In this document: piece by piece, positions 3,269 through 45,687 of the stretch
How positions within the stretch are numbered: position 1 is the first letter of the stretch
Layout: each line of letters begins with the position of its first letter
Assembly (NCBI GenBank): GCA_034437215.1
Contig: DAOTVC010000106.1
Span: 30,369 to 94,368 of the forward strand
Source of the DNA: Anaerolineae bacterium
Lineage (GTDB): Bacteria > Chloroflexota > Anaerolineae > B4-G1 > SLSP01
DNA length: 64,000 nt
Reading direction: 5' to 3'
Program-made: the position numbers and the translations under genes
The notes under the pieces: generated by a model
What the model saw: only the letters and a program-made list of their open reading frames with translations
Databases searched by the model: none
Told to the model about the DNA's origin: nothing

Positions 3269-3447
3269 GAGATTTCCTCCTTATGGAAATAAACGGGTTA
3301 CGACTCATCTATGATGATAGAGGTGGGTCGCAGAAAAGTCAACCTGAAGTTTTCTTGTCTTCCGCACCTACCGTGCTATCATTGGCTTGATCGCTATACC
3401 GCCATCGATGGGGCAGAAGACCTGCCCATCTTTTGAGGAGACTGCTG

Positions 3448-6400
3448 ATGAAACGAAACACCCTTCGTTCACAAGTTTGGATGCTGGCGTTGGTGTTTCT
3501 GCTCGTATTCCAGGCGTGTACCCAGATCCGGAGCCCTCTGGAGACTGCTACTCCCGAGGGTGAAGCGCAGGACGGGCTGATGCCCGACCTCGATCTTCCG
3601 CCTGCCGTGGTGGAGTTCACCCCACGACCCGGTCAGGAGCTGGCGCCCGATGACGTGGTCGTCAAGGTACGCTTCGATCAGGACATGGATCGGGAGAGCG
3701 TTGAAGACGCTCTCAGCTTCTCCCCGCCCCTCGAGGGCGAGGTGAGCTGGCAGAACGAACGGACCCTCGCCTTCCGTCCTCAAGGGCTGGCGGCCGCGAG
3801 CCGCTATCACGTCTCCCTGAGCCCGGAGGCGCAGTCGGCGGAGGGCCGAGCGCTGGGCCAGCCGTTGGCCTTCACCTTCTCCACGGTGGGGCCTCTGCAG
3901 GTGACGCGCGTCAGCCCTGAAGCGGGAGCCGACGATGTGCGGGTCGACGCCCCCCTGTTCATCGCCTTCAATCGTCCCGTCGTGCCCGTCAACTGTACAG
4001 GGGCCGTTGCCGGCAAGATCGACGAATGTCCGGCGCTGTCCCTGTCCTTCACGCCTCCCATCAACGGTGAGGGCTTCTGGATCAACACCTCCCTCTATCG
4101 CTTCACACCGCGTCTCGGCTGGGACGCCGGACGTGTCTACCGGGTGCAGCTGGCGTCGGGGATCAGCAGTATTGTCGGCGCGACCATGGACGACTCGTAC
4201 ACCTGGTCCTTCTCCGCTGCGCTGCCCCGCATCCTGGACGTTCAGCCGTCTTTCAAGGAAGAGGATGTGCCCCTGGAGACCGGGGTCGTGGTGACCTTCA
4301 ATACTCCCATGGACCCCGAGGCGACGGGCAGTGCCTTCTCTCTCGTCTCGGAGGCCGGAGCGCCCGTGCCCGGTGGGCTCACCTGGCGTGACAACGGCGC
4401 CGTCCTCGTCTTCACCCCCACCCAGCAGCTCGACCTGGGGACGCGTTACCTGCTGCGCTTGGGAGAGCGGGCCCGGGCCCTCACGGGGGCGCCCATCGAA
4501 GCGTCCTTGGACTCCTCCTTCACCACGGTTCCCTATCCCGCTCCGGTCTCCATCGTGCCTGCCGACGATACCTCAGGCGTCCCCCTTTACGACTCGGTGC
4601 GTGTGGCCTTTGCCGGCGCTATCAGCCCGACGACGGTGCTGCCCCACGTTGTGGTGACGCCGTCGGTGGCGCAGAACGATCTCTACACTTACTGGAGTGG
4701 GAACATTCTGAACCTCTCCTGGGACAAGGAGCCCCGTACCGAATACTGCGTCCGCATCGCGCCGGGCATTCAGGACCGTTACGGTAACGAGACGACCTCA
4801 TCGCTGGCCGCCTGCTTCACCACCGGTGATCTGCCCCCCGTCTTCGCCCCCGCTACCGGGGGGAATGCGGCAACTCTGGACGCCGCGCAGCCGGCGGAGC
4901 TCTACGTCGTCTCCCGCAATCTGACCCGCGTCTCCCTGAGCCTGTTGTCGATGAGCGAGCGGGCTTTCATAGGTTCTCAAGAAATTGCAGGGGAAGAGGT
5001 GCGGGGTTGGACGGAGTCGTTGGCCGGAGAGCCCAACGAGGCGCGCATCAGTCCGTTGGTCCTCACCCGGCAGGGAGGCCCTTTGCCTACCGGCTACTAC
5101 GGCCTGCGTTGGAGCGCCCCCCAGGATGGCGGCTGGCGTCAGGATTTGAGAATCGCCGTCGTCGACCGGCACGTCACTTTGAAGGTGGCGACGGAGGAGG
5201 CGCTGGTCTGGGTGACGGATTTGCAGAGCGGTGAGCCGGTCGCCGGGGCCGAGGTCCGCCTGCTCGACGAGCAGGGCACGTTGATCGCCGGTGCGACCAC
5301 CGACAGTCAGGGGATTGCGCGTACTCCCATCGAGGCGCGGAAGAATCTCTGGGATCGCGTCGCCGCTGTGGTCGGTAGACCCGGCGAGGAGGGTTTCGGG
5401 GTCGCCCTCACGGGTTGGAACGCCAACGTGACCCCCTGGGAGTTCGGCATCGATGTGGACTACGGAGGGAAGACGCCCTACTATCTCTACCTCTACTCCG
5501 ACCGGCCCATCTACCGCCCCGGTCAGACGGTGCACGTGCGCGGTATTCTGCGGGAGGAGGCGGACGTCCGCTACTCGCTGCCCGATCTGCAGCAGTCTGT
5601 CGAGGTCCGGCTGCGGGACGTGGACTGGAACGTGGTCACGACGAATACTGTCACGCTTTCGGAGATCGGTGGTTTCGATACGGCCTTCGAGCTCTCTCAG
5701 GGAGCCGCTGTGGGGCTCTACGCCGTGGAGGCCCTGGTGCCCGGCGTGGAGCGGGTCTGGCAGCTGCCTTTCGCGGTGGCTGCCTACCGGAAGCCCGAGT
5801 TCGAGGTCAGCATCACCCCCGAGAGGGATGACGTCCTGCAGGGAGAGACCCTGCGTGCGGTCGTCGACGCTCGCTACTACTTCGGCGGACCGGTGAGCAA
5901 TGCCCGGGTGGCGTGGACGGTGCGTGCGGCGCCGTCCGTCTTTGATCCGCCCGTGGAGGGTTGGTGGAGCTGGGGGCCGAGTGGGGGCAGGGTGTTGAGC
6001 CACGAGCCTATCGCCCGTGGTGAGAAGACGACCGATGGTGAGGGACGGGTGCTGTTGGAGATCCCCGCCGAGCTGGTCGAGCCCGAGAACGGTGAGCCGC
6101 CCTCCTCGCAGGAGTGGGAGATCGAGGTCACCGTCACCGATGAGAGCGGTTTCCCGGTGAGCAACCGGGCCCCGGTGACCGTACATGCAACGCGCTTCTA
6201 TCTGGGCCTCCAGCCCCGGGAGTGGGTGGTCCGGGCCGGGGAGAAGACATCCGTCGACCTCATGGCCCTGGACTGGCAGGGGGCGCCCGTCTCCAATCAG
6301 GAGGTGGAGGTCACCCTCGCCCAGCGGGAGTGGTACCGGGAGCGCTCTGCGGAGCCCTTCAGCTCTCCTCGCTGGGCCTACACGGACACCATCGTCTCCA

Positions 6401-10115: not shown

Positions 10116-11237
10116 TCAGTACTCCGCTTCGGGACGGACCATGCCCTCCATGTCCACGCTCACCTGCTCCGAGAGGTTCTCGAGACTGTCGAAGAGGAGC
10201 TGGAGCACGTACCGGGCGTTGTGGGTGTAGGATCCGGGGTCTTCGTGCTCGTAGTGGTAGTTATAGGCAGCCTTGACCAGGCGCGGGGTCCAGCTCTGGT
10301 AGCGGTTGGGGAAGGCGGCCTCGCCCTCGTCGACCTCCCCGTTGCCGTTGGTGTCGGTGAAGAAGTAGGGGAAGGAGTCGGCGTAGATGATGGGGGTGCC
10401 GATCACCTCCGCGGCGTAGGTCTGGATGGCGGTGTAGAGCGCCTCGTGAAGGGTCTCGATCTCCTGGGCGATGCCCTCCTCGGCGTTGCCGTCACCGTCG
10501 TAGTCCACTCCGGGCTCTTCGCGGATCTCCGCCAGGTCACCGTAATTGACCACGTTGGAGTGACAGGCAGCGCAGGCGTCGGGATCGAGCGCCGTGCTGT
10601 GGGGATCGTGGCACTCGATGCAGGTATCGTACTGCTCGGTGTGGGGGTAGCGCCCCACGTACTCTCGACCCTCGTACTGGTAACCGACCTGCACCCGATC
10701 ACCCATCAGCGTAGCGGCGGCGATGGCGTAGTGCACGTTGATGAAGCCCAGTTCTTCGGAGACCGTGTCGAGCGGGAAGCCGGCGACGGCCTCGTTGACG
10801 CCTTGCGTCGACTGGCGCCCCTGGTGGCAGTCCATGCAGACCGCCGACTCCGTCAGCCCCTCGACCTCCACGCCGGAGGGGAAGACGACCGTGGTCTTCT
10901 CGTCGGCGGCCTCGTTGTGGCAGGTGAGGCAGGAGACGACGGAGCCCACCCGGGCGGCTTCATCCACCACACCGGCCGCCGTGCCATCGGCGCCCACGTA
11001 GTCGAGGTAACCGTAAAGACTGTGGCACTTGGCACAGTTGGTGGGAATTTCGGGCGGCTCGTCCTCGTCCCAATGGACGAAGGATTCGGAATCCCAATCT
11101 GAGTGCCCGGCCCGGTTCCACTTGGCGGTCACCGCTTCTACCGGTTCGCTGCGTAAGGTGAACCAGTAGAGGCCCCCGATGATGAGCATGCCGATCATGA
11201 TGCCGATAAGGATGAGGGGTAAAAGTTTGAGGTTCAT
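10116..11237 (-). CDS. Membrane-anchored pentaheme c-type cytochrome
   Basis: Five CxxCH motifs: CAKCH, CLTCH, CMDCH, CIECH, CAACH. N-terminal TM anchor MNLKLLPLILIGIMIGMLIIGGLYWF. Confidence 0.75.
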   Translation of the reverse strand: MNLKLLPLILIGIMIGMLIIGGLYWFTLRSEPVEAVTAKWNRAGHSDWDSESFVHWDEDEPPEIPTNCAKCHSLYGYLDYVGADGTAAGVVDEAARVGSVVSCLTCHNEAADEKTTVVFPSGVEVEGLTESAVCMDCHQGRQSTQGVNEAVAGFPLDTVSEELGFINVHYAIAAATLMGDRVQVGYQYEGREYVGRYPHTEQYDTCIECHDPHSTALDPDACAACHSNVVNYGDLAEIREEPGVDYDGDGNAEEGIAQEIETLHEALYTAIQTYAAEVIGTPIIYADSFPYFFTDTNGNGEVDEGEAAFPNRYQSWTPRLVKAAYNYHYEHEDPGSYTHNARYVLQLLFDSLENLSEQVSVDMEGMVRPEAEY

Positions 11238-11368
11238 GGTCTCTCCTTTCGTGTTGTGATCCTGTTGTAGTTGCCTGTGTGACGCTGAACGTCCCCCCTA
11301 GCACTATGGTTATTCATCTCTCATTATAGGGGAAAAGAGGATACGCGCAAATCTCTTTTCTCTCTCCG

Positions 11369-11397
11369 TTGACAGGGTCGGCACCTCTATGTATAAT
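11369..11397 (+). promoter_or_regulatory. Consensus sigma70 promoter: TTGACA, 17 bp spacer, TATAAT
   Basis: Read directly: ttgacagggtcggcacctctatgtataat, about 65 nt upstream of the 11461 start, in the divergent region shared with the cytochrome gene. Confidence 0.5.
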
Positions 11398-11460
11398 TTT
11401 TATAACGAAAACGTGTTTAATCACAGACACGTCCTCGCAATTCACGAAGGAGGGTTTTGG

Positions 11461-12795
11461 ATGAAGTCTCGACACAAGGCTGTATTCTGGATCGTTGTCT
11501 ATATGTTTTTGGTGCTCTCGCCCTTTATCATTCTCTTCCTGGCTCCTCGCCCGCCGGGTCGGGAGTTTCTCAGGGAACTGGGTGTGGCCTTCGGCTTCGT
11601 AGGTATCTCGTTGATGGGTATCCAGTTCATTCCCACAGCGCGGCTCCCCTTCCTCGCCGATCTCTTTCCCATGGATACGCTCTACGAGTTTCACCATAAA
11701 CTCTCGTTGTTGGCTTTTGGCTTCACGTTGGCGCATCCGCTGTTGCTGTTGCTCAACAACGTGTACGTCATCAATCTTTTTAATCTCTTTACCGCCCCGG
11801 CTCGGGCCCAGGCCGGCGTCCTGGCTGTGCTGGCACTCATCGTCCTGGTCTTGACCTCGGCGCGGCGTGTGAGTCTCGGACTGGACTACGATGTGTGGCA
11901 TATCTTGCACTTCCTGCTCACCTTGGTCATTATCGGTTTCGGACTCTATCACATGCTCGCCGTCAACTACTATACCTCCGTGCCGGCCCAGCGGGTCCTG
12001 TGGCTCCTGATGGGCGTGTTGTGGGTGGGCATGATCCTCTATACCCGGGTGGTGCACCCCATCATCCTGCTCCGGCGGCCCTACGAGGTCGTGGAGGTCA
12101 CCGAAGAGCGGGCGAATTCTTGGTCCATCCTGCTGGCGCCCCGCGGGCATTCCGGCTTCGAGTTCCGGGCAGGGCAGGTGGCGTGGCTCAAGTTCTGGCG
12201 ATCGCCCTTCTCCCCCCTGGATCATCCCTTCTCCATTGCCACGAGTGAGGAGCGTCAGGAGCACGTCGGATTCCTGATCAAGGAGCTGGGGGACCTCACC
12301 TCCCGGATGGGGGAGTTGGAGGTAGGGCAGACGGTCTACGTTGACGGGCCCTACGGGACCTTTGATCTCGAAGACTGGCGAGATTCCCCCAACGTCTACA
12401 TCGCGGGCGGGATTGGGCTCGCGCCTATCGCCAGCATGTTGCGCACCCTGGCCGACCGGAAAGATGAGCGACCGTTGATTCTCTTCTACGGGAACCCTAC
12501 CTGGGAATCGGTCATCCTGCGGGAGGAGATTGAGGCGCTCCAGGAGCAGCTGAATATGAAGGTCGTGCACATTCTGGAGCGACCGCCGGAGGGATGGGAG
12601 GGAGAAACCGGTTTCATCCGCGAGGAGATTCTGGAGCGCCACATTGATTTCGATTGTAGCGAGTGTAGCTTCTTTGCCTGCGGTCCCCTGCCCATGTTGG
12701 ATGCGGTGGTGGACGCGCTGGAGTCCATGGACGTGCCCGGGGAGCGCTTCAATCGCATGCGCCAGCTCCACATGGAAGAGTACGAGATGGCCTAA
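11461..12795 (+). CDS. NOX/ferric-reductase-like flavocytochrome: a six-TM bis-heme ferric reductase domain fused to an FAD/NAD(P)-binding FNR-like domain
   Basis: His pairs in TM helices (FHHKLS..AHP; WHILHF..YHMLA). HPFSI FAD motif. GGIGLAPI NAD(P) motif. AGGAGG RBS before the MKSRHK start; the track start at 11389 is probably too long. Confidence 0.7.
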   Translation: MKSRHKAVFWIVVYMFLVLSPFIILFLAPRPPGREFLRELGVAFGFVGISLMGIQFIPTARLPFLADLFPMDTLYEFHHKLSLLAFGFTLAHPLLLLLNNVYVINLFNLFTAPARAQAGVLAVLALIVLVLTSARRVSLGLDYDVWHILHFLLTLVIIGFGLYHMLAVNYYTSVPAQRVLWLLMGVLWVGMILYTRVVHPIILLRRPYEVVEVTEERANSWSILLAPRGHSGFEFRAGQVAWLKFWRSPFSPLDHPFSIATSEERQEHVGFLIKELGDLTSRMGELEVGQTVYVDGPYGTFDLEDWRDSPNVYIAGGIGLAPIASMLRTLADRKDERPLILFYGNPTWESVILREEIEALQEQLNMKVVHILERPPEGWEGETGFIREEILERHIDFDCSECSFFACGPLPMLDAVVDALESMDVPGERFNRMRQLHMEEYEMA

Positions 12796-12921: not shown

Positions 12922-13038
12922 TCGGTTGCGCTCAGTGCGAGCGTCCCGAGAGAGCCCTGCGGGTAGAGCTACCTGCGGGGCTCTTCGCTCTTGCTTTCAG
13001 GGAGGTGAGGATGGACGGGCCCGTTGTTCTGGGTGTCA

Positions 13039-13884
13039 ATGCCTGGCCCCGCCGGTGCGAGACCTGCCTCGCAGGGGCGTAGCGAGGAGCGGGCCATCGT
13101 TCACTTCGGCAGGATTGAGCGTGTCGACTACGCTGGGCCTCTCTGGGAGGTGGAGGGCATTCACCCCCGCCTCAAGGTTCACCTGGCGGCCCGCGACCGC
13201 CTCGTCGTGTTGGCTCACGGATCGCCGCCCTACGCCGTCGTCCTGGGTGTGCCCCACCACTCCGCCGTCGGGCACGGGCAGCTCTGCGAGAGGCGTCTCG
13301 ACCGCGAGGGACGGCCCAATCCCCGGGTCTCCGACGAGGCCACGGCCCCCTACGCGTTGGTCGCTTTGGAGGCCCTGCGGCGGGAGGGCGTGCCCGCCCG
13401 GCTCGTGGTCATGGCTCACGCCACCACCCACGATCCTAACAAGCACGCCCGGAGCCCCTACACCTGCGCTCTCTTCGAAGAGCCCGTCGCTCTCCTCTTC
13501 GAGTGCCACGGGTCGGGGCCCCGCCGCGCCCTCCCGCTGGAGCTGAGCGCGGGGAACAATCCCCTCGCCGACCCCCTGCGCTGCGGGCGGGCGCTGGCGG
13601 AGACGTTGGAGCGCCGCTACGCCCTGGGCGTACAGCGGGAACCGGGGACCCGGGAGGCCCTCATCTTCCACCCCGACGGCTCAGAGATGCCGGGCCGGCT
13701 ACAACTCTCGGCGCGCCGCACCCTCTCCCTCGTGGAGGCAGGACGCCTGGGTATCCAGGCCCTGCACCTCGAGGCCAAGCCGCGCTTCCGCACCCCCCGC
13801 GGCAGCGAGTTGGGCCTGACGCCGGAGGGGCGCTTTCTCGGTCAGGCCATCGCCCGTGCCCTCGTGCGGTATCTTGATGGATAA
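13039..13884 (+). CDS. Hypothetical protein, possibly a zinc-hydrolase-like fold; function unknown
   Basis: High-GC3 frame, preferred over the overlapping 12926..13546 frame. His-rich motifs HGSPPY, GVPHHS, HATTHD, ECHGSG. The start is ambiguous: ATG 13039 or TTG 13024. Confidence 0.35.
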   Translation: MPGPAGARPASQGRSEERAIVHFGRIERVDYAGPLWEVEGIHPRLKVHLAARDRLVVLAHGSPPYAVVLGVPHHSAVGHGQLCERRLDREGRPNPRVSDEATAPYALVALEALRREGVPARLVVMAHATTHDPNKHARSPYTCALFEEPVALLFECHGSGPRRALPLELSAGNNPLADPLRCGRALAETLERRYALGVQREPGTREALIFHPDGSEMPGRLQLSARRTLSLVEAGRLGIQALHLEAKPRFRTPRGSELGLTPEGRFLGQAIARALVRYLDG

Positions 13885-13896
13885 GGGAACAGAGAT

Positions 13897-13916
13897 GAGG
13901 GATTGGGGATCAGGGG
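13897..13916 (+). repeat. G-rich GGGATTGGGGATCAGGGG repeat (GGGGATT family)
   Basis: Read directly. The same motif family is at 20163..20209 and 63782..63813. Confidence 0.45.
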
Positions 13917-13937
13917 TATTATCACAAATGGGTCTGT

Positions 13938-13966
13938 TTCAACAAATTGGCTTCCCGCGTTATAAT
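13938..13966 (+). promoter_or_regulatory. Sigma70-like promoter (TTCAAC, 17 bp spacer, TATAAT) for the ccm operon
   Basis: Read directly: ttcaacaaattggcttcccgcgttataat, about 30 nt upstream of ccmE. The -10 lies in the loop of a CCCGC/GCGGG inverted repeat. Confidence 0.4.
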
Positions 13967-13994
13967 AGGCGGGTTGCGCCTGAGAAGGAGGGTT

Positions 13995-14480
13995 ATGCGA
14001 AACAAGGGCACGTTCATGGTCGCCGGTCTGCTCGTCGTCGTCGCCGTCGTCTACCTGATGGTGACGAGCACCGGCAGCACCGCCCGCTACTTCCTCACCA
14101 TCGAGGAGCTGCAGGCGTTGGGGTCGGAGGCGCAGGAGCGGCAGGTGACCGTCTCCGGCGCCGTCCTGGGGGAGAGCATCGACTATGACGCCTCCCGGCC
14201 TCACCTGACCTTCACCATCGTCCAGGTCCCCGCCGATCCCCGGGAGGTGGAGGCGGCGGGCGGCCTCGCCACCGTTTTGCGGGAGGCGGTCAACGATCCC
14301 GACGCCCCCCGGCTGCGGGTGGTCTACGAGGGCATCCGGCCCGAGGCGCTGCAGCACGAGCGCCAGGCCATCGTGCGCGGGCGGCTGACGGAGGAGGGGG
14401 CCTTCCTCGCCGAGGAGCTCCTGCTCAAGTGCCCTTCGCGCTACGAGGCGGCGCCCGCGGAGGGCGAGCCGGGCGGATGA
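13995..14480 (+). CDS. ccmE: Cytochrome c maturation heme chaperone CcmE, CxxxY variant
   Basis: N-terminal TM then an OB-fold-like domain. C-terminal LLLKCPSRYE places Cys where the heme-binding His of canonical HxxxY CcmE sits. GAAGGAGGG RBS. Stop overlaps the ccmF start in an ATGA. Confidence 0.55.
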   Translation: MRNKGTFMVAGLLVVVAVVYLMVTSTGSTARYFLTIEELQALGSEAQERQVTVSGAVLGESIDYDASRPHLTFTIVQVPADPREVEAAGGLATVLREAVNDPDAPRLRVVYEGIRPEALQHERQAIVRGRLTEEGAFLAEELLLKCPSRYEAAPAEGEPGG

Positions 14481-16945
14481 CGGGCGAGGTCGGGACGCTG
14501 CTCGTCGGGCTGGGATTGCTCTCGGCCCTCTACACCGCCGGCGCGACCCTGGTGGGGCTCCACCGGGAGGACGAGCGGTGGCTCGCCAGCGGCAGGAATG
14601 CCGTCGTGGCGACCTCCGTCCTGCTGGGCGGCGCCCTGCTTGCCCTGCTGGTTGCCTTCCTCACCGGCAACTTCTCCCTCGCCTACGTTGCCGACCACGG
14701 CTCCCGCGCCCTGCCCCTCTACCTCAAGGTCTCGGCCCTTTGGGCCGGGCAGGAGGGCTCTCTCCTGCTCTGGAGCTGGATGCAGGCCCTCTTCGCGGTG
14801 CTCACCCTCCATCTCTCGGGGCGCAAGGCCCTGCCTCTCCTGCCCTGGGTGACCGTCTTCCTCGCGCTCATCACGGCCTTCTTCACCGGCGTGACGCTGC
14901 TGACCTCCAACCCCTTCGTGCTTCGGACTCCCGTCCCGCCCGACGGGTTGGGTTTGAACCCCCTGTTGCGTCATCCGGGCATGATCCTGCACCCGCCGGC
15001 GCTCTACGTCGGCTACGTCGGCCTCGCCGTCCCCTTCGCCTTCGCCCTGGCGGCCCTCGTGCGCGGGCGGCTGGCGGCGTGGACGAGGGCCGCGCGCGGC
15101 TGGATCCTCGTCGCCTGGCTGGGGCTGAGCCTGGGCCTGCTGCTGGGGATGCGCTGGGCTTACGACGTCCTGGGGTGGGGCGGCTACTGGGGCTGGGATC
15201 CCGTGGAGAACGCGGGGCTCATGCCCTGGTTCACCGCCACGGCCCTCCTGCACGGTCTCGTCATGCAGGGGGAGCGCCGGGGCTTCCGCCTCTGGAACCT
15301 GCTCCTGGCGATCTTCTCCTTCGCCCTCGTCCTCTTCGGGACCTTCGCCACGCGGAGCGGCGTCATCCAGTCGGTGCACGCCTACGCCCGCTCCGACGTC
15401 GGAACCTACTACGCCGGGGCCATCGTCGTCACCCTCCTCCTCTCCGCCGCCCTGCTGGTCTGGCGCCGGGGTCATCTCCAGGCCGATGGCGAGGGCGAGG
15501 GGCTGCTCTCGCGCGAGGGGCTCTTCTTCCTCACCTTCTTGCTCTTCGTGACGCTCACCGTCTCCGTCTTCGTGGGGAGCACGCTGCCCACGCTCACCGA
15601 GCTCTTCGGCGGGCAGCGCTTCGAGGCAGGGCCGGCGTGGTTCGACCGGGTGACGGGTCCCCAGTTCGCCCTGCTCGTGCTCCTGCTGGGGATCTGTCCG
15701 CTGCTGGGGCGCTCCGCCGCCCTGCTGCGCGCCCGGCGCGGGTGGCGCTGGTCGATCCCGGCGGGGGCGCTTCTCGCCGTGGTGCTGGCGATCTTTGCCG
15801 GTTTCACCCGGCCCCTCTCCCTGATCGGCTTCGGGATCGTGGGGCTGGCGGGGACGACGGCCCTCGTCGAGATCGGCGCGGGCGTCGCTGCCCGTGCCCG
15901 CCGCACCGAGGACGCCCCCCTCAACGCCCTCTGGCACCTCCTGCGCACCCAGCGGCGCAGGTACGGCGGCTACCTCGTCCACCTGGGCGTCGTGCTCATG
16001 GCTCTGGGCGTCATCGGCACGCGCCTCTACGCCCTGGAGGAGGACGTGGTCCTCACCTCGGGCGTCGGTCGGCTGGTGGGCGGCTACACCTTCGTCTACC
16101 AGGAGCTGCGCCAGGAGACGGCACCGGATCGGACTACCCTCTGGGCCGAGGTGGACGTGCGGGAGGCGGGTGACTACCGGGCTACCCTGACGCCCCGCCT
16201 GATTCGCTACACGGGCTACCGGGAGTCCGTGGCCGTCCCCGCCGTGCGCACGGGGTTGCGAGAGGATCTCTACCTCGTCCTCTCCAGCTGGGACGAGGGC
16301 GGGAGGACGGTGACCCTCAGCGTGACTGTCAATCCGCTGATCAATTTTCTCTGGCTGGGAGGACTGCTCTTGATAGCCGGTGGCGCCTTCGCCCTCTGGC
16401 CCCGCACTACCCGCTGGGAGGGCCTGGTCGCCGGGGTGCTGCTCCTCCTCCTCATCGGCGCCGGCTGGGCGATGTGGGGGGCGCCCCACGGGAACCTCCG
16501 GCGGGTCAACCCGCGGCCCACCGTGGGGGAGCCCGCGCCCGACTTCCGCCTCCGGCTCCTCGACGGCACGACCTTCTCCCTCGCCGAGCAGCGGGGGGAG
16601 GTGGTCGTTGTCAATCTCTGGACCTCCTGGTGCGAGCCCTGCCGGGAGGAGCTGCCCGATCTGCAGGCGCTCTGGGAGGTCTACGGGGAGCGGGGCGTCC
16701 GCTTCGTCGGCGTGGCCCACCAGGACGAGCCGGAGGGGGTGCGGGATGCCGTCGCCGACTACGGGCTCACCTATCCCGTGGGCCTCGACGAGGGGCAGCG
16801 GATCGCTGACGCCTACGGGATCACGGGTGTGCCCGAGACCTTCGTCGTCGCCCCCGACGGGCGCGTGGCCTACGTTCACGTCGGCCCGGTGACGGCGGAG
16901 GTGCTGGCGGCAGAGCTGGATGCACTTCTGGAGGAGGCCCCATGA
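14477..16945 (+). CDS. ccmF: CcmF heme lyase fused to a C-terminal TlpA/ResA/CcmG-like thioredoxin domain
   Basis: WWD motif GWGGYWGWDPVENAG and many TM helices over about 650 aa. The C-terminal roughly 170 aa carries a WCEPC thioredoxin motif (VNLWTSWCEPCREELPDLQ). Confidence 0.75.
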   Translation: MTGEVGTLLVGLGLLSALYTAGATLVGLHREDERWLASGRNAVVATSVLLGGALLALLVAFLTGNFSLAYVADHGSRALPLYLKVSALWAGQEGSLLLWSWMQALFAVLTLHLSGRKALPLLPWVTVFLALITAFFTGVTLLTSNPFVLRTPVPPDGLGLNPLLRHPGMILHPPALYVGYVGLAVPFAFALAALVRGRLAAWTRAARGWILVAWLGLSLGLLLGMRWAYDVLGWGGYWGWDPVENAGLMPWFTATALLHGLVMQGERRGFRLWNLLLAIFSFALVLFGTFATRSGVIQSVHAYARSDVGTYYAGAIVVTLLLSAALLVWRRGHLQADGEGEGLLSREGLFFLTFLLFVTLTVSVFVGSTLPTLTELFGGQRFEAGPAWFDRVTGPQFALLVLLLGICPLLGRSAALLRARRGWRWSIPAGALLAVVLAIFAGFTRPLSLIGFGIVGLAGTTALVEIGAGVAARARRTEDAPLNALWHLLRTQRRRYGGYLVHLGVVLMALGVIGTRLYALEEDVVLTSGVGRLVGGYTFVYQELRQETAPDRTTLWAEVDVREAGDYRATLTPRLIRYTGYRESVAVPAVRTGLREDLYLVLSSWDEGGRTVTLSVTVNPLINFLWLGGLLLIAGGAFALWPRTTRWEGLVAGVLLLLLIGAGWAMWGAPHGNLRRVNPRPTVGEPAPDFRLRLLDGTTFSLAEQRGEVVVVNLWTSWCEPCREELPDLQALWEVYGERGVRFVGVAHQDEPEGVRDAVADYGLTYPVGLDEGQRIADAYGITGVPETFVVAPDGRVAYVHVGPVTAEVLAAELDALLEEAP

Positions 16946-17196
16946 GTCTGGCCGCGTTGTTGGTGGGTTTGGGGTTGGTGGTGCTCTGGGGTGTCTACGT
17001 CACCCGCCCCTTCCGCCGTCCCTCGTTGGATGAGCAGATCGAGGTCTGGGTGGCGGAGGTTGACGTGCAGGCTCGCGCCGTGCCCCAGGAGGAGGCGCCC
17101 ACGGTCAGCGCCTGCCCTGCCTGCGGTCGCCCCCTCCGCGAGGACTACAGCTTCTGCCCCGGCTGTGGTACACCTTTGAGGGAGGAGGCGTCATGA
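16942..17196 (+). CDS. Small membrane protein with a C-terminal zinc ribbon (CPACG...CPGCG)
   Basis: Translationally coupled by ATGA overlap with ccmF upstream and the 17193 gene downstream. One TM helix, then a CxxC...CxxC ribbon. Confidence 0.5.
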   Translation: MSLAALLVGLGLVVLWGVYVTRPFRRPSLDEQIEVWVAEVDVQARAVPQEEAPTVSACPACGRPLREDYSFCPGCGTPLREEAS

Positions 17197-18020
17197 GGCT
17201 GCGCGCTCTCCTTGTATGCGCCTTAATAGCCCTGTTGCTCCTGACCGGCACGGCGCGCGCACAGGCGCCGGTCACCATCGAACAGGCCCACCTCTTCATC
17301 CGCTTCGCGGAAGATCGGCTGGAGGTGCAGGAGTTTCACTTGCTGAGCAACGCCGGCGAGGAGCCCTACACGGGTGGGGTGGACCCCGACCTGGGCGTGC
17401 CCATCACGGCTCTCTTTGAGCTGCCGCCCGGCGCCGCGGACCTGAGGTTCGCCGACCCGGCGGCGGGGGAGCGTTTTGTCCTCGCACCGGAGGGCTTTGC
17501 CGATACCCTCCCCATCCCCCCCGGCGAGTCCACGGCCGAGGTGCGCTTCACCTACGCGCTCCCTTACCGTCCCGGCGAGCCCTTCTCCCGCACCTTTTCC
17601 CTGCCGGTGGGGGCCGTCGTCGTCGTGCTCCCCGCCGGGGAGCTGGAGCCGGTGGGCGAGGTACTTGCCTATCAGGGGGAGATGCCCGGTGAGGGGCTGA
17701 ACGTCGACGTCTACGTCGCCGGATCGCTGGCGGCGGGGGAGGCGCTGACCCTCTCCCTCGTCCCCCCGGAAGCGGTGACGCCTGCTCGTCCCCCCGCCGA
17801 GGTGGGGCTGGGCGCGGCGCTCCTGGGGCTCTGCCTGCTGGCGTCCCTCTGGCTCTGGCTCTGGCGTCCCTCTCCGACCGCACCCCCCGAGTCGGTCCGG
17901 CCCCTCCTGGCGGAGGTGGCGGCGCTGGATGCCCGCTTCGAGGCGGGGGCGCTGGCGGAGGAGGTCTACCGGCGGGAGCGGGCGGCGCTGAAGGCGGAGG
18001 TGCGCTCCCGGTGCCTCTGA
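17193..18020 (+). CDS. Secreted or membrane-anchored hypothetical protein embedded in the ccm operon
   Basis: Signal peptide MRLRALLVCALIALLLLTGTARAQA. C-terminal TM followed by a charged helical tail. ATGA-coupled to its neighbours. No CxxC motif. Confidence 0.5.
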   Translation: MRLRALLVCALIALLLLTGTARAQAPVTIEQAHLFIRFAEDRLEVQEFHLLSNAGEEPYTGGVDPDLGVPITALFELPPGAADLRFADPAAGERFVLAPEGFADTLPIPPGESTAEVRFTYALPYRPGEPFSRTFSLPVGAVVVVLPAGELEPVGEVLAYQGEMPGEGLNVDVYVAGSLAAGEALTLSLVPPEAVTPARPPAEVGLGAALLGLCLLASLWLWLWRPSPTAPPESVRPLLAEVAALDARFEAGALAEEVYRRERAALKAEVRSRCL

Positions 18021-19474
18021 TCCCCTCTCCTGCCCCGCCCGCCATCTGGACCGCCGCCCTCGAGAAGCGCTTCGGCCCCACCGTGGCCCTCGACGGCGTG
18101 GACCTGGTGGTGGAGCCGGGGGAGTTCGTCGTCCTCGTAGGCCCCAACGGCGCGGGCAAGACGACACTGCTGCGCACCCTGGCGACCCTGGCCCGCCCCA
18201 CCTCGGGCGAGCTGCGCATCGCCGGTCTCGACCCCGCGGCGGCGGGACGCGCCATCCGCCGGCGCATCGGCTTTCTCTCCCACCGCACCCTGCTCTACGA
18301 GGAGCTGAGCGCCGGGGAGAACCTGGCCCTCTACGCCCGCCTCTACCGCTTGGAGGAGCCCGCCGCCCGCATCGACGAGCTCCTCGACCGCGTCGACCTC
18401 GACTGGCGGCGCAACGACCTCGTCCGAACCCTCTCCCGGGGCATGCAGCAGCGCCTTGCGGTGGCCCGCGCGGTGCTCCACCGCCCCTCCCTCCTCCTCC
18501 TGGACGAGCCCTACACCGGCCTCGATCCCCTGGCGGCGGAGGCGCTGACGGCGCTGCTGGGCGAGCTCGCCGGGGGGGGGAGCACGGTGCTGCTGACTAC
18601 CCACACGCTGGAGGGGCTGGGAGCGGCAGGGCGGCGGGTGGTCGTTCTCAACCGGGGGCGGATCGTCCACGACGGGGTGGTGGCGGAGTGGGGCGCCTTC
18701 CCCGGGCTCTACCGCCGCCTGGTGCTGGAAGAGGCGGAGGTGGTAGCGTCGATCGCTCTGGGCGAGGAGCGACCGCCTGAGGGCCGGGTAGACGAGGAGC
18801 GGGGTGGAACGCTGGCCGCCGTGTTCGCCATCGTGCGCAAGGACTTGGCGGCGGAGCTCCACACGCGGGAGATGGTCAACGCCATGTTCGTCTTCGCCGT
18901 CCTGACGCTCCTCATCTTCAGCTTCGCCCTCGACCTGCGGGGTGCCACCGCCCGGGCGGCGGCGCCGGGCGTCCTCTGGACGGCCGTGGCCTTCGCCGGG
19001 ACGCTGGGGCTGAGCCGCTCGCTGGCCCGCGAGGAGCAGAGCGGCGCCATCGAGGGGCTGCTCCTGGCCCCCGTTGACCGGGTGACCCTCTTCTTCGGCA
19101 AGGCGCTGGGCAACCTGCTCCTGATGCTCTTCGTCGAGGGGGTGCTCCTGCTGCTGGGCAGCGTCCTCTTCGACGTTCCCCTCCTGCAGCCGGCGGTGCT
19201 CCTGGTGATGGTGCTGGGCACGGTGGGCTACGCCGCCGTGGGGACCCTGCTGGCGGCCATGGCGGTCAACACCCGGGCACGGGAGGTGCTGCTGCCCATC
19301 CTGCTCCTGCCCCTGGCGATCCCGCTCTTCATCGGTGCGGTGCGCGCCACGGGCGGACTGCTGGAGGGGCTGGGGCTGGCGGAGGTCAACCCGTGGCTGC
19401 GCCTCGTCGTGGTCTACGACCTGCTGATGGTCGCCGTCTCCATGGTGACCTTCGAGTACGTGATTGCCGAGTGA
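18011..19474 (+). CDS. ccmAB: CcmA-CcmB fusion: heme exporter ABC ATPase fused to the CcmB permease
   Basis: N-terminal Walker A GPNGAGKTT, signature LSRGMQQRL, Walker B LLLDEP. The C-terminal roughly 220 aa is a multi-TM CcmB-like segment (ILLLPLAIPLFIGAV). GTG start overlaps the upstream stop. Confidence 0.65.
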   Translation: MPLIPSPAPPAIWTAALEKRFGPTVALDGVDLVVEPGEFVVLVGPNGAGKTTLLRTLATLARPTSGELRIAGLDPAAAGRAIRRRIGFLSHRTLLYEELSAGENLALYARLYRLEEPAARIDELLDRVDLDWRRNDLVRTLSRGMQQRLAVARAVLHRPSLLLLDEPYTGLDPLAAEALTALLGELAGGGSTVLLTTHTLEGLGAAGRRVVVLNRGRIVHDGVVAEWGAFPGLYRRLVLEEAEVVASIALGEERPPEGRVDEERGGTLAAVFAIVRKDLAAELHTREMVNAMFVFAVLTLLIFSFALDLRGATARAAAPGVLWTAVAFAGTLGLSRSLAREEQSGAIEGLLLAPVDRVTLFFGKALGNLLLMLFVEGVLLLLGSVLFDVPLLQPAVLLVMVLGTVGYAAVGTLLAAMAVNTRAREVLLPILLLPLAIPLFIGAVRATGGLLEGLGLAEVNPWLRLVVVYDLLMVAVSMVTFEYVIAE

Positions 19475-19483
19475 GGAATTAGA

Positions 19484-20170
19484 ATGAAAAACGAGAGAGG
19501 GTTCGGGCCCGTCCTCATCGCCCTGGCGGCGGTCGCCTTTCTGGCGGCCCTGGGCATGGTCTTCTACTACGCGCCCCGCGAGGCGACGATGGGGGAGGTG
19601 CAGCGCATCTTCTACTTCCACGTGGCCTCGGCGTGGGTGGGCTTCTTCGGCTTCTTCGTCACCTTCGTGGGGAGCGCGGGCTACCTCCTGAGCGGGCGGC
19701 GCCCGTGGGACGTCCTGGCTCTCTCCTCGGCAGAGGTGGGGCTAGTCTTCATCACCATGACGCTGCTCACCGGCATGCTCTGGGCGCGCCCCGTCTGGGG
19801 CACCTACTGGACCTGGGAGCCGCGCCTGACCATCTCGGCGGTGCAGTGGCTCATCTACGTGGCCTACGTCATGGTGCGGGGTTCCGTGGAGAGCCGGGAG
19901 CGGAGCGCGCGCTTCGCCGCCGTCTACGGCATCGCCGCCTTCGTCACCGTCCCCCTCTCCTGGTTCGCCATACGCTGGTGGCGGACCATCCACCCGCAGA
20001 TCATCGGCGGCGGGGAGATGGCCCTCACCCCGCAGATGCTCCACACCCTCTTCGCCTCCATCGGCGCCTTCACCCTCCTCTACGCCGCCTTCCTCCTCTA
20101 CCGCGTGCGCCTGGAGCGCGCCCGGGACCGCTTGGCGGCGCTGCGGGGGCGGCGGGGTCGTCGGGGATGA
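19484..20170 (+). CDS. ccmC: Heme exporter protein CcmC
   Basis: Trp-rich WWD motif WGTYWTWEPRLT. Multi-TM. Confidence 0.75.
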   Translation: MKNERGFGPVLIALAAVAFLAALGMVFYYAPREATMGEVQRIFYFHVASAWVGFFGFFVTFVGSAGYLLSGRRPWDVLALSSAEVGLVFITMTLLTGMLWARPVWGTYWTWEPRLTISAVQWLIYVAYVMVRGSVESRERSARFAAVYGIAAFVTVPLSWFAIRWWRTIHPQIIGGGEMALTPQMLHTLFASIGAFTLLYAAFLLYRVRLERARDRLAALRGRRGRRG

Positions 20171-20209
20171 GGGATTGGGGACTGGGGATTGGGGATTGGG
20201 GATCAGGGG
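20101..20209 (+). repeat. Extended G-tract run ending in a (GGGGATT/GGGGACT)n array
   Basis: Read directly: gggggcggcggggtcgtcggggatgagggattggggactggggattggggattggggatcagggg. It overlaps the ccmC 3' end and stop. The complementary CCCTGATCCCT repeat occurs twice at 20294..20327, so a long-range inverted arrangement exists. Confidence 0.5.
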
Positions 20210-20353
20210 CCCTTTCTACTTCCCGATTACTATGTCCTGCCAACACTGGCGCCGAGCGGGTTTAATGACGGGGTCGGAGTGATATACCATGACGCTATTG
20301 CACTCCCTGATCCCTCTTCTCTCTTCCCTGATCCCTATCTTTTAGGAGGTTCC

Positions 20354-20494
20354 ATGCCCAGCTATCTGATCGCCGCTTACGCTATCTTCGTTGCCGTGCC
20401 GCTGCTGCTGGCCCTCTCCCTCTACCTGCGCCACCGCCAGGTGGAGCGCGCCGTCCGGGACCTGCGGCAGGCGGAGCGGGAGGGGCGCGGATAG
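20354..20494 (+). CDS. ccmD: Putative heme exporter protein CcmD (46 aa, single TM)
   Basis: MPSYLIAAYAIFVAVPLLLALSLYLRHRQ... followed by a basic tail. TAGGAGG RBS 5 nt upstream. Position after ccmC matches the usual ccm order. Below the track length cutoff. Confidence 0.4.
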   Translation: MPSYLIAAYAIFVAVPLLLALSLYLRHRQVERAVRDLRQAEREGRG

Positions 20495-20602: not shown

Positions 20603-20676
20603 GGGCGGTTAGCTCAGTCGGCCAGAGCGCCTTTCTTACACGTAGGAGGTCACAGGTTCAAGTCCTGTACCGCCCA
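20603..20676 (+). tRNA. tRNA-Val (anticodon TAC)
   Basis: Manual cloverleaf fold. Acceptor GGGCGGT/ACCGCCC plus discriminator A. D-arm GCTC/GAGC. Anticodon loop CTTACAC with T33 and A37. T-arm ACAGG/CCTGT with a TTCAAGT loop. One mismatch in the anticodon stem. CCA is not encoded. Confidence 0.8.
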
Positions 20677-20893
20677 CTTGCCCTAGACTTTGCTGTGTCC
20701 CTCATTCTCAGTAGATGTTGTGAGCAGTAGTCCTTTCCCGTCACTCCACCGGTTAACCCCTCCACGTCGGAACAGAGGTCGCGTGCCGCCGCCTTGCCGT
20801 CTCTCAATTTTCAAATAAACTTAGGGAGCAAATCGCAAGGGCGGTCGAGGAAAAGCGACCATCCTCCCTGACCAAAATCTCAATCACTGCCGA

Positions 20894-22693
20894 TTGGGGG
20901 AGGGACCTCAAGACGTGAACTGGGAGTATAATCTGGCTCTGATCCTGCTCGTCGTCGCGGCGGGCATCGCTACGCTGTTGGCCCTTTTTACCCGGCGGCG
21001 ACCGGCACCGGGAGCGCGAAAGTTTGCCCTGTTGATGCTCATGTTGGACGGCTGGTACGTGGGGCTGGCGCTCCAGATAGCAGGGGGCAGTCTCCTGATC
21101 AAGTATCTGGGGCTGCGCATTGAGTACACTGTCACCTTCTTCATCGGCGTGCTCTGGCTGGCCTTTGTCTTGAGTTACACCGGCTCCTCCGATTGGCTGA
21201 CGCGTCCCCGAGCCGCCGCTCTCTGTGCCATCCCGGCCCTGAGCACACTCCTCCTCTGGACCAACGGCCAGCACCATCTCCTTCTGCAGGACGTCCATCT
21301 ACCGTCCCCTGCTCCCTTTGTGCCCCTGGAGTGGACGCCGGGTCCCTTGCTCTGGATCGGTCAGCTCTACGTCTATCTCCTGATGGCGAGCGGAGCGGTC
21401 CTTTTGGGACGCCAGATCCTGCGCCTTCCCCAGATCTACGTAGGGCAGATTGCGGCGCTGCTGGTGGGCCTGGCAGTTCTGGTGGTGACGAGCCTCCTCT
21501 ATCTGTTCGAGATTGTCCCCTCCCACGTCCCACTGGGGGCCTATGCCCTGCTCGCCGCCGCGCTCTCCACCGCTTTCGGTCTCTTCCGGTGGCAGCTGCT
21601 GGATCTGGTTCCCGTCGCCCGCGACGTGGTCGTCGACGAGCTGGCGGACGGGGTGCTCGTCTTGGATCGGCAGCGGCGTCTCGTCGACGTCAACCTGGCC
21701 GCCGAGCGCTGGCTGGGTAGCCCCGCTGACGAAGTGGTCGGCAAGGATCTGGCGCGAGTTGCGCCCCTCCTGGCGGAGGGCCTCTTCCCGCTCCTCACCG
21801 GGGAAGCGGGGGCCGATCCCTTCCTGCAGGAGGTGCAGAGGGAGGGGCGCGTCTATACGCTCCGAGTGAGCCCGCTCTACGGACGTGATGGGCAGCCGAC
21901 CGGTTGGGTGCTGGTGCTGCACGACGTGACGGACCTGCGAACCGCTCTGCTCCAGGCGGAGGCAGCAGCCGAGGCCCAGTCGCGCTTCGTCAGCAACGTG
22001 AGCCACGAGCTGCGTACGCCGTTGACCAACATCACCCTCTACCTCGCGCTTCTGGAGCGGGGCAAGCCGGAGCGCCACGCCTTCTACATGGATACCCTCC
22101 ACCGGGAGACGGAGCGCCTGAAGTTTCTCATCGAGGGGCTGCTGCGCCTCTCCCGGCTCGATCTGCAGGAGGTCACTCCGCAGCCGTGCCTCCTGGACGT
22201 CAACGTCCTGGTCGAGACCCTGGCGCAGGATCGCCGACCTCTCTTTGCCGAGCACGAACTGGAGCTCGGTACGCAGCTGGAGCCCGCGCTCCCCGCCGTG
22301 AGCGCCGATCCCCAGCTGCTCGAGCAGGTCCTCACGAATCTGCTCAGCAACGCGCTCAACTACACGCCTGCCGGGGGGCATGTGTGGGTGCAGACCGACG
22401 AGAGCGCGGAGGAGGGGACGCACTGGGTCACGATCAGCGTTCGGGATACGGGCGTGGGCATCAGCGCCGAGGAGCAGGCCCGGCTCTTCACCCGCTTCTA
22501 CCGGGGCGCAGCCAGCCGCAATCCCGAGACGGCAGCGCCGGGCACGGGGTTGGGCTTGGCCATCTCTCAGGAGATCATGGCCCTGCACGCGGGGCGCATC
22601 ACTGTGGAGAGCGAGGGGGGGGAGGGGAGCACCTTCACCCTCTGGCTGCCCGCCGATGCCAACGGTGCTCCTGATACCCTACGCAACACGTAG
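20894..22693 (+). CDS. Sensor histidine kinase: N-terminal 7TM sensor domain, PAS, HisKA, HATPase_c
   Basis: Multi-TM N-terminus paralogous to those of the HKs at 31991 and 42532. H-box SHELRTPL. HATPase motifs DTGVGI and GTGLGLAI. The start may be the GTG at 20915 rather than the TTG at 20894. Confidence 0.8.
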   Translation: MGEGPQDVNWEYNLALILLVVAAGIATLLALFTRRRPAPGARKFALLMLMLDGWYVGLALQIAGGSLLIKYLGLRIEYTVTFFIGVLWLAFVLSYTGSSDWLTRPRAAALCAIPALSTLLLWTNGQHHLLLQDVHLPSPAPFVPLEWTPGPLLWIGQLYVYLLMASGAVLLGRQILRLPQIYVGQIAALLVGLAVLVVTSLLYLFEIVPSHVPLGAYALLAAALSTAFGLFRWQLLDLVPVARDVVVDELADGVLVLDRQRRLVDVNLAAERWLGSPADEVVGKDLARVAPLLAEGLFPLLTGEAGADPFLQEVQREGRVYTLRVSPLYGRDGQPTGWVLVLHDVTDLRTALLQAEAAAEAQSRFVSNVSHELRTPLTNITLYLALLERGKPERHAFYMDTLHRETERLKFLIEGLLRLSRLDLQEVTPQPCLLDVNVLVETLAQDRRPLFAEHELELGTQLEPALPAVSADPQLLEQVLTNLLSNALNYTPAGGHVWVQTDESAEEGTHWVTISVRDTGVGISAEEQARLFTRFYRGAASRNPETAAPGTGLGLAISQEIMALHAGRITVESEGGEGSTFTLWLPADANGAPDTLRNT

Positions 22694-31923: not shown

Positions 31924-31990
31924 GATCCTCGTGCTACTATATAACTGAACTCTAACAGGGGTTGCCGGACTTGTCTCTCGTTTAAACCTT

Positions 31991-42381: not shown

Positions 42382-42531
42382 CGAAGAGCTCTCCCCTGCA
42401 GTTGGCATCCTCGCTCTTCTCTGCTACAATGTCGCTTGCGACGGTTTTTGCTCGACTCTCTTTACCGACAAGGGAGAAGTGGTGCGGGCCGGTAGGCGGC
42501 CCCTTGAAATCTCCGTCCGGAAGGCAATAGC

Positions 42532-45500: not shown

Positions 45501-45687
45501 CCAACGGCTCTTCACCCCCTTTACTCGTCTGGGACAGGTGAACGTCAGCGGGCACGGTCTGGGCCTCTCCATCGTTCAACGCATCGTCCAGCGCCTCAAC
45601 GGACAGGTCGAAGTCCGCAGCGAGCCCGGTGTGGGGGCGGAGTTCAGTTTCATCCTTCCCGCAGACGAGGCGGTACTCTCGCGGTAG
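42532..45687 (+). CDS. Sensor histidine kinase: 7TM sensor, PAS, GAF, GAF, PAS, HisKA, HATPase_c
   Basis: 1,051 aa. GTG start. H-box AHDLKTPLTLI. HATPase motifs DNGKGI and GHGLGLSI. The C-terminal third closely parallels the HK at 31991. Confidence 0.8.
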   Translation: MPWQFNPYSLFLIVTAALAAGLVVACWRRRPLPGAAAFSVVMLALLVWSLAYGMALAHSTPEVKERLIRLQYLGVVTAPIAWFLFALGYTRQDLWLSPRIYILLAVEPLLFLLLLATNDSHALVYEGVILTDMGSFSTLQWDEVGWAFWMHSVYSYGLLTVTSYLIIRAFILSPGLYQGQILLLIVAAFAPWIGNALYLFGVSPYVDPTSFAFLLTGILVTLALYRFRLLDIVPVARHAVMEDLSDGIIVLDSRNRVVDLNPAAEEMIGVSAGEAIGQRGMHVLAAWPQLVDKYRERKHAHDEILVERQGEVRAYDLRISPLRRGGGRIEGRLVGLRDITERKLAEEALRTREHFLASLSEITEAALETPDLQTMVQTLADRLGELFGADGCYLVLWDEERRQPRPAAALDIPQEVYRTRTMEIGEVALISKTLAEERPLVIEDTTRISYLVERETPLFPGHSLLGLPLIADGRKLGAAIIAFERPRSFKAEEVAQAGQVSRHLALALAKVKMLDSERFARERTEALYQFTSSLLTHEDLTQALQTVAREMAELLLADRVLIVTLDLEGRRILKAVLEGRGATPLVPFSFEELEEGLVGWVLREREATLSPKGRPDARESAAVRRRRAEFKLGALMVAPLRYRGRSLGAVVAINRLQDPDFTEHDLALLAAVSNQAAVVIDDIRLYEETARLKVFNENILQSVGEIILLEDENGRFTFVNPAIEEVLGYVPESLLGQSWELLLPKREWARVREESRRREQGLAGRYETLACASDGREVPLIVSARPLFQEGRFAGTISAVTDITERKRVEEEREQLIEDLDAFAHTVAHDLKTPLTLIVGAARLLQKNIDLENRTLHYLTDSVVRGGNKMSNIIDELLLLSSVREKADITFETLQMDAIVAESLDRLQGLIEERGAQIQLPESWPVARGYGPWVEEIWANYISNAIKYGGDPPVVELGGSLCNGEGAAGARSYARFWVRDNGKGISEEERQRLFTPFTRLGQVNVSGHGLGLSIVQRIVQRLNGQVEVRSEPGVGAEFSFILPADEAVLSR

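Follow-up and report, generated by a model that had tools for sequence, protein, structure and literature searches.

Cytochrome c maturation by System I is represented in its canonical form by CcmABCDEFGH of Escherichia coli, where the core seen by cryo-electron microscopy is Ccm(AB)2, joined by one or two CcmCD, i.e. Ccm(AB)2CD or (ABCD)2 (PMC10457321). A variant in which CcmE carries a cysteine, System I*, was originally described with CcmH missing from the organism (Allen et al. 2006), but this absence later proved not to be universal: CcmH is present in about one third of the bacteria with Cys-CcmE, among which Chloroflexi had already been counted (Stevens et al. 2011, PMC3601427). System I* is known from Desulfovibrio desulfuricans, where CcmG is absent (PMC3601427, PMC9084895), and from archaea, which have no CcmD; in M. 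acetivorans ccmG lies at a separate locus and is dispensable (PMC9084895). The review PMC3601427 does not list any known variant of CcmA, B, C or D, and it is still open in System I how reductant and apocytochrome reach CcmF and what CcmH, CcmG and CcmI contribute (PMC3601427, PMC10663686). Here we describe a ccm operon on the forward strand (positions 13995-20494) of a 64-kb stretch of Chloroflexota DNA of about 65% GC, the whole of which is called the window. Judging from the encoded sequences, the operon very probably specifies a System I of the Cys-CcmE type (System I*) that is typical of one clade of Anaerolineae-class Chloroflexota.

Like canonical System I, the operon encodes homologues of CcmA to CcmG with the Walker, tryptophan-rich, histidine-ligand and CxxC motifs, but the order is E-F(G)-x-x-(AB)-C-D, CcmE has a cysteine for His130, CcmC has WE for WD, CcmH and CcmI are missing and two fusions are present. 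Compared with System I*, CcmG is fused to CcmF instead of being absent (Desulfovibrio) or encoded separately (M. acetivorans), CcmD is retained, CcmA and CcmB form one fused protein, the operon includes two additional conserved genes and there is no TPR-type CcmI. An earlier sequence-only reading of the window had proposed this gene order and the Ccm family of each open reading frame (ORF), and searches with Pfam and NCBIfam profiles agree with it, finding homologues of CcmA, B, C, (D), E and F. Specifically, the curated cut-offs are exceeded by far for CcmE, the two CcmF domains, Redoxin, ABC_tran, CcmB and the Pfam domain of CcmC, and TIGR01189 (ccmA) gives 138 bits at a cut-off of 131.6. 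No description of a CcmF-CcmG fusion, a CcmA-CcmB fusion or a Chloroflexota ccm operon was found in the literature searched; the two conserved operon members that have no annotation do not appear there either, and the proteins are in public databases under automatic names.

Ccm queries were mapped onto 30 related loci (numbered with the prefix L). The best protein matches carry the names Anaerolineae, Anaerolineales or Thermoflexia, and a scan of metagenomes added a single 1.9-kb locus. The loci fall into two layouts. Type A, which is that of the window and occurs in 17 distinct loci, reads ccmE, ccmF fused to a thioredoxin domain (ccmF::trx), a zinc-ribbon gene, a gene of the family of the 275-residue protein described below, ccmA and ccmB (fused or not), ccmC and ccmD. 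Type B (complete in L006, L025, L026 and L027, partial in L028 and L029) reads ccmE, ccmF, ccmH with a CPVC motif, a separate ccmG, the zinc-ribbon gene, the family gene, ccmA, ccmB, ccmC, ccmD and sometimes CcdA. The four complete type B operons thus share with the window the Cys-CcmE and the zinc-ribbon and beta-sandwich pair 5′ of ccmA, but differ in their unfused ccmF, their ccmH, their separate membrane-anchored ccmG and the occasional CcdA 3′ of ccmD, as well as in a longer beta-sandwich protein, to which a dihaem cytochrome c module is often added; in type B, ccmA is separate from ccmB. None of the 17 ccmF::trx loci has a ccmH within the sequence viewed (up to 8 kb on either side of the query gene), whereas ccmH is adjacent in all six loci with an unfused ccmF. 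CcmF is 58-64% identical to the window protein in type A and 42% identical in type B, and a TPR-type CcmI was found in none of the Chloroflexota ccm operons viewed. On these sequence comparisons, a large Anaerolineae clade has this arrangement as its standard, and the operon is not an oddity of this genome. The word ‘atypical’, which had been applied to it at first sight, does not hold for the lineage itself, where at least 17 related loci repeat the whole gene order.

The ccmF::ccmG (ccmF::trx) gene (14477-16945) encodes 822 residues with the N- and C-terminal domains of CcmF and a Redoxin/ResA/DsbE domain at residues 683-810. More specifically, the CcmF core occupies residues 1-644 and aligns end to end with the CcmF of T. 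thermophilus (6zmq; PDB search, 1.3e-88); its WWD motif reads WGGYWGWDPVEN, and its histidine-containing segments, which we assign to the four known heme-ligand positions by E. coli numbering, are kept with 6zmq. The last CcmF helix (residues 621-639) is followed by R-T-T-R-W, an extra hydrophobic helix (residues 649-667) and then the thioredoxin domain (residues 681-813) with W-C-E-P-C (nucleotides 16631-16642) and a GVPETF cis-Pro loop. Its matches in the PDB include ResA (4nmu, 8e-25), CycY (1kng) and CcmG (3k8n), and its family scores are 3.9e-29 for Redoxin, 1.6e-33 for ResA (NF002854) and 3.3e-20 for dsbE (TIGR00385). The domain shares with ResA and CcmG (DsbE) the fold family, the CEPC of Bacillus subtilis ResA, the GVPETF loop and a preceding transmembrane anchor, but those are separate proteins, while here the domain is a C-terminal extension of CcmF. 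It belongs to the CcmG/ResA group by its thioredoxin family, CxxC and cis-Pro loop, and the hydropathy of the extra transmembrane helix would place this redox domain outside the membrane. The separate CcmG of the CcmH-type operons, to which the fused domain is 38-44% identical, has its own N-terminal transmembrane anchor; the extra helix matches this anchor, and the fusion therefore corresponds to CcmF plus a complete membrane-anchored CcmG. Redoxin/AhpC-TSA domains are present in all of the best 120 CcmF homologues (120/120; Anaerolineae/Thermoflexia, 55-64% identity, 775-866 residues). In one metagenome-assembled genome (MAG) named ‘Chloroflexia’ (L011, 4753-7234), ccmF::trx is split into two overlapping ORFs of 200 and 672 residues, either by a frameshift or as a genuine split like that of archaeal CcmF1/F2. 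A precedent for joining parts of a cytochrome c synthase is the fused CcsBA of System II in Helicobacter and Wolinella (PMC10663686), although both the system and the partners are different.

The gene for the membrane-anchored heme chaperone CcmE (13995-14480, 161 residues; Pfam CcmE 70.6 bits, 1.5e-19) is of the cysteine variant. Its motif K-C-P-S-R-Y, preceded by L-L-L (...L-L-L-K-C-P-S-R-Y, with C-P-S-R-Y at nucleotides 14430-14444), places the cysteine at E. coli His130 and the tyrosine at Tyr134, the E. coli sequence having been confirmed via PDB 8ce8/1sr3; the alignment required a profile, as a phmmer search of the PDB with the window CcmE alone gave no match. The CxxxY form noticed in the first reading is thereby confirmed. 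All Chloroflexota CcmE relatives examined have K-C-[PA]-[ST]-[RK]-Y, whether their operon is of the CcmH type or the ccmF::trx type, and Cys-CcmE is therefore independent of CcmH loss in Chloroflexota; indeed, CxxxY CcmE, a canonical CcmH and a separate CcmG occur together in the sister Chloroflexota L006, L026 and L027. Of the proposed match to a variant System I layout, the assignment to System I* is supported, but lack of CcmH is no defining trait of Cys-CcmE systems (PMC3601427). Chloroflexota CcmE also has an insertion of about 25 residues (PADPREVEAAGGLATVLREAVNDPDAP; window 14225-14300) compared with E. coli CcmE, which is not found in L007.

The CcmA::CcmB protein (18011-19474, 487 residues; Pfam ABC_tran 2.9e-31, CcmB 2.2e-26) contains an ABC half-transporter within one ORF, with an ATPase (residues 1-235, approximately) carrying Walker A GPNGAGKTT, signature LSRGMQQR and Walker B LLLLDEP, and a CcmB permease (residues 272-481). 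The same fusion is found in L002/L003, L011, L014, L016 and L020, and the two genes are unfused in L005, L009, L010, L015 and L021-L024, i.e. among window-type operons they are fused in about five lineages and unfused in about eight. Given the Ccm(AB)2 stoichiometry of the E. coli complex, a 1:1 fusion acting as a homodimeric half-transporter is unproblematic and structurally natural. The next gene, ccmC (19484-20170, 228 residues), matches Pfam Cytochrom_C_asm at 1e-28 and TIGR01191 (ccmC) at 4e-36, and its tryptophan-rich motif WGTYWTWEPRL (19796-19828) has a glutamate where the canonical WWD motif has aspartate. This glutamate recurs in every ccmF::trx-type operon, while the CcmH-type operons L006 and L026 have WDPRL and L027 has WSPRL (L027, 10729-11430). 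Finally, ccmD (20354-20494, 46 residues) has the ribosome-binding site AGGAGG and a match to TIGR03141 (4.5e-5) that falls short of the cut-off (23.5 vs 25.95 bits); an alignable small ORF lies 3′ of ccmC in the relatives.

From the gene identities, motifs, architecture, conservation and synteny observed, a mechanism can be proposed by homology with the known systems: (i) the CcmA::CcmB half-transporter would homodimerise into a Ccm(AB)2 core, (ii) this core, with CcmC and CcmD, would load heme on the cysteine of CPSRY in membrane-anchored CcmE and release holo-CcmE, (iii) CcmF, with its WWD domain and four histidine positions intact, would take the heme from holo-CcmE and ligate it to the CxxCH of the apocytochrome and (iv) the CcmG/ResA-like thioredoxin, tethered to the CcmF C-terminus by one extra transmembrane helix, would keep the CxxCH cysteines reduced at the synthase, which is why we propose that a separate CcmH would not be needed in the operon. 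The two embedded proteins may act as conserved, translationally coupled accessory subunits of the CcmF module. A likely client is encoded 2.7 kb 5′ of the operon by a pentahaem cytochrome c gene. The two layouts amount to a natural experiment, as sister operons share Cys-CcmE and differ in having either ccmF-ccmH-ccmG or ccmF fused to ccmG with no ccmH nearby, so that a direct route through CcmG would become testable.

The two embedded genes of no assigned function, noticed in the first reading, are confirmed as such and form a conserved pair, present between ccmF/H/G and ccmA in all of about 26 loci examined, even at 22-25% identity; the most divergent family members (E = 1e-17 and 2.6e-10) have this position as well. 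The first (16942-17196, 84 residues; Pfam DUF7575, Zn_Ribbon_1) begins with a transmembrane helix that has a conserved P-F-R-R at its end; next comes a C4 zinc ribbon on the cytoplasmic side, and the gene is joined by ATGA both to ccmF::trx and to the gene that follows. Its orthologues, of 92-194 residues, occupy the same operon position in relatives, the longer forms adding a cytoplasmic helical segment. The zinc ribbon is usual at the C-terminus of this small protein, but the L028 form has no zinc-ribbon Pfam match, and none is on record for the 128-residue protein at this position in L029.

The second embedded gene (17193-18020) encodes a protein of 275 residues from an unannotated family, with no match in Pfam or NCBIfam. 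Its AlphaFold2 model (pLDDT 88.7) has a signal peptide, a double beta-sandwich ectodomain (residues 27-190), a transmembrane helix (residues 202-223) and a cytoplasmic SHOCT-like helical hairpin as its tail (residues 236-274). The protein had been described as secreted, which is right in so far as it has a signal peptide, but the C-terminal transmembrane helix would anchor it in the membrane with the hairpin in the cytoplasm. When 1.84 billion representative proteins were searched with a profile of the family, 10,633 clusters matched at E <= 1e-3, and the count at E <= 1e-30 was 3,160. Near-invariant residues of the family are H33, E47, N53, P78, P107, P110, G111 and Y121, and an extra CarboxypepD_reg-like Ig domain is present in many members other than those with CxxCH motifs (see below). 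Wherever coordinates were compared, the family gene lies directly 3′ of the small transmembrane gene, the two either overlapping slightly or standing a few bases apart. In a Pseudonocardia plasmid, an actinobacterial System I operon with CcmH, a TPR protein and a redoxin is without the pair. Two other roles were considered and rejected: the 275-residue protein is not a CcmH-like reductase that could replace CcmH in thiol redox chemistry, because its ectodomain has no cysteine, and the zinc-ribbon protein is not CcmD, since a separate conserved CcmD lies 3′ of ccmC.

A role of the pair resembling that of CcmI is attractive, because no TPR-type CcmI was seen in any of these Chloroflexota operons. 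When aligned with hhalign, the transmembrane helix and tail of the 275-residue family matched the first transmembrane helix and cytoplasmic loop of two alpha-proteobacterial CcmI (probability 93%, score 40.8), against controls of mean 9.8 and maximum 21 with shuffled columns, maximum 19.6 with the transmembrane helix kept and the tail shuffled, and 17.6 when reversed; E. coli CcmH is a poor reference for CcmI, its C-terminal part having no cytoplasmic motif. Weak matches to TIGR03142 were found in 3 of 22 family members (best E 0.042). The same tail, however, also matches GvpG (9/12) and SHOCT (3/12), so that what is shared is a SHOCT-like hairpin of a generic kind, which leaves homology to CcmI (CycH) unproven. 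Other features differ from those of CcmI: neither embedded protein matches a TPR domain of the CcmI type, the ectodomain is predicted to be all-beta and lies N-terminal to the transmembrane helix, and the N-terminus of the zinc-ribbon protein gave no signal against that of CcmI (hhalign probability 1.8%). As a separate observation, a proteobacterial plasmid ccm cluster (Phaeobacter inhibens plasmid pP88_b; L034, 4630-4935) has a small gene named ‘SHOCT domain-containing protein’ immediately 5′ of ccmF, which echoes the SHOCT-like tails of the two Chloroflexota proteins.

That the pair represents membrane accessory subunits of the CcmF module, involved for example in the handling of apocytochromes, is a plausible but tentative suggestion. 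Similarly tentative is the fuller proposal that the pair makes up unrecognised System I subunits, i.e. a split CcmI-like module that combines two transmembrane helices and a helical region in the cytoplasm with a protein-binding domain outside the membrane and would present apocytochromes or holo-CcmE to CcmF, the CcmF::CcmG fusion being at the same time a natural demonstration that CcmG acts directly at the synthase without CcmH. If the two proteins were true Ccm components, they would be additions to the described System I component set, and the 275-residue protein would stand for a family, at present without annotation, that numbers over 10,000 clusters. They could also explain how System I functions in the Chloroflexota, a phylum generally regarded as having no outer membrane.

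Several observations weigh against the reading of the operon as a self-sufficient Cys-CcmE system in which the fused thioredoxin stands in for CcmH and the pair assists CcmF. The association between the fusion and the lack of ccmH is perfect in the sample, but it is probably one evolutionary event, as the type A CcmFs form a tight group that points to a single ancestral origin. Both ccmC and ccmD score under the NCBIfam trusted cut-offs. No CcdA/DsbD that could feed the thioredoxin domain is encoded in the window, while ccdA lies 3′ of ccmD in L027 and L030. The window is part of a genome only, so that ccmH, ccmI and ccdA may lie elsewhere, and ccm genes are dispersed in L004 and L007. Last, the dihaem module in about 45% of the sampled members of the 275-residue family makes a Ccm client or a redox partner possible.

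This last point leads to an explanation of the pair that is perhaps equally tentative, namely that it is a co-transcribed client or redox partner of the Ccm system, derived from a dihaem cytochrome c that was anchored in the membrane and had a small partner; the copy in the window would then be a remnant that has no heme and some other envelope function. CxxCH motifs occur in 75 of 167 sampled family proteins, 70 of these having exactly two in an N-terminal module, and in L006, L025 and L026 the gene at this position encodes a cytochrome c fused to the beta-sandwich; moreover, the pair has no specific similarity to any known Ccm protein, and its cytoplasmic tail resembles generic GvpG/SHOCT hairpins. 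Against this view stand the strictly kept position between ccmF/H/G and ccmA, very divergent loci included, and the translational coupling to both ccmF and ccmA by ATGA or short overlaps. The near-invariant ectodomain residues are retained in the heme-less forms, and no other cytochrome gene is fixed in this way inside ccm operons.

A second explanation, which we consider unlikely, is that this is a canonical System I whose ccmH (with ccmI and ccdA) is encoded elsewhere in the genome, the operon being only seemingly free of CcmH. In the window itself, the absence of CcmH and CcmI that had been claimed from the ORF translations was borne out: among the 34 other large ORFs, all of them scanned with Pfam, there was no CcmH, CcmI/TPR or CcdA/DsbD, no ORF scanned has PF03918 or a periplasmic (L)RCxxC, and tblastn of two Chloroflexota CcmH queries against all six frames gave a best E of 2. 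Only 64 kb are covered, however, and related loci show that ccm genes can lie apart, with ccmH about 8 kb from ccmE and outside the compact operon in L007, and ccmB and ccmC not adjacent to ccmA in L004; the presence of CcmH in about one third of Cys-CcmE bacteria (PMC3601427) points the same way. What speaks for an operon that truly does without CcmH is the contrast between the two layouts, where ccmH is missing from every ccmF::trx locus within the distance viewed and adjacent to every unfused ccmF, and the fact that System I* of Desulfovibrio functions without CcmH (Goddard 2010, per PMC3601427, PMC9084895). As for the reductant, a CcdA (DsbD_TM) gene, DUF2085 and Cu-oxidase_4 lie directly 3′ of ccmD in L027 (11658-12626) and L030 (4880-5848), of which the former locus has ccmH and the latter has its upstream end cut off. 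In the window this position is taken by tRNA-Val and a histidine kinase, and the reductant supply of the thioredoxin must therefore be encoded elsewhere.

It is highly improbable that the CcmF-like protein, instead of being the general synthase, serves as an NrfE-type lyase dedicated to some unusual heme motif: the NCBIfam NrfE models do reach 387 bits, compared with 406 for the general CcmF/NrfE model, but none of these scores reaches the NrfE cut-offs, the gene has ccmE and ccmABCD as its neighbours, none of nrfA, nrfF and nrfG is nearby, and the nearby cytochrome has five ordinary CxxCH motifs. Assembly or frameshift artefacts, named in the sequence-only reading as what the fusions might turn out to be, can practically be dismissed, because the fusions are conserved across homologues and loci, with ccmF fused in all of its best 120 homologues and ccmA::ccmB recurring in several distinct MAGs and metagenome assemblies, and also given an identical 822-residue protein in NCBI and the same operon in assembly GCA_046541445.1.

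Of the four ATGA junctions initially listed, those at 14477, 16942 and 17193 were found, while the junction at 18011 has a GTG start and a 10-nucleotide overlap with the upstream TGA (18018-18020), so that the genes are still coupled there. The gap between ccmAB and ccmC is 9 nucleotides. The best start of ccmE is the ATG at 13995, with a GGAGGG ribosome-binding site, the TTG at 13947 being less likely. Just 5′ of it lies a sigma-70-like promoter on the forward strand (TCAACA-16-TATAAT, 13939-13966, 10/12 matches), one of two promoter-like sites within 7.5 kb (0.1 expected); the second is 5′ of the tRNA-Val (20603-20677), which thus has a promoter-like site of its own.

The spacer between ccmC and ccmD is 183 nucleotides long and rich in G-rich and C-rich repeats (20163-20336, forward strand), with (GGGGATT)n at 20163-20208 and two copies of TCCCTGATCCCT at 20304-20336. 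These copies, about 117 nucleotides downstream, are complementary to the (GGGGATT/GGGGACT)n heptads, and a long-range stem is possible. The same G-rich motif is found at 13895-13918, just 5′ of the ccmE promoter, and at 63783-63807, near the end of the window, with seven matches vs 1.9 expected. The spacer repeat may belong to a repeat dispersed between genes, or it may form a stem that covers the ribosome-binding site of ccmD. A structured RNA in this spacer was considered and set aside, with no Rfam match and a marginal fold z-score of -1.9.

Among the neighbouring genes, a divergent pair 1-3 kb 5′ of ccmE (10116-11297 on the reverse and 11389-12795 on the forward strand) encodes the membrane-anchored pentahaem c-type cytochrome (five CxxCH; Cytochrome_C7/c3 matches) and a ferric-reductase-like transmembrane/FAD/NAD(P)H oxidoreductase; the cytochrome, a likely Ccm client, may have a role in transmembrane electron transfer. 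Immediately 5′ of the ccm promoter, an ORF of about 281 residues (13024-13884) has a high GC content at third codon positions and no Pfam match; the NCBI MAG lists it as a gene, but it was not found 5′ of ccmE in other loci. Three histidine kinases of the window (20894-22693, 31949-35599 and 42508-45687) have in common a HisKA_7TM N-terminal sensor region together with PAS and GAF domains. Further upstream, a protein of about 2,000 residues (3391-9396) resembles bacterial alpha-2-macroglobulin (four Big_5 domains, MG2/MG3/MG10, bait region and TED), and its gene adjoins a phosphonate-type ABC transporter.

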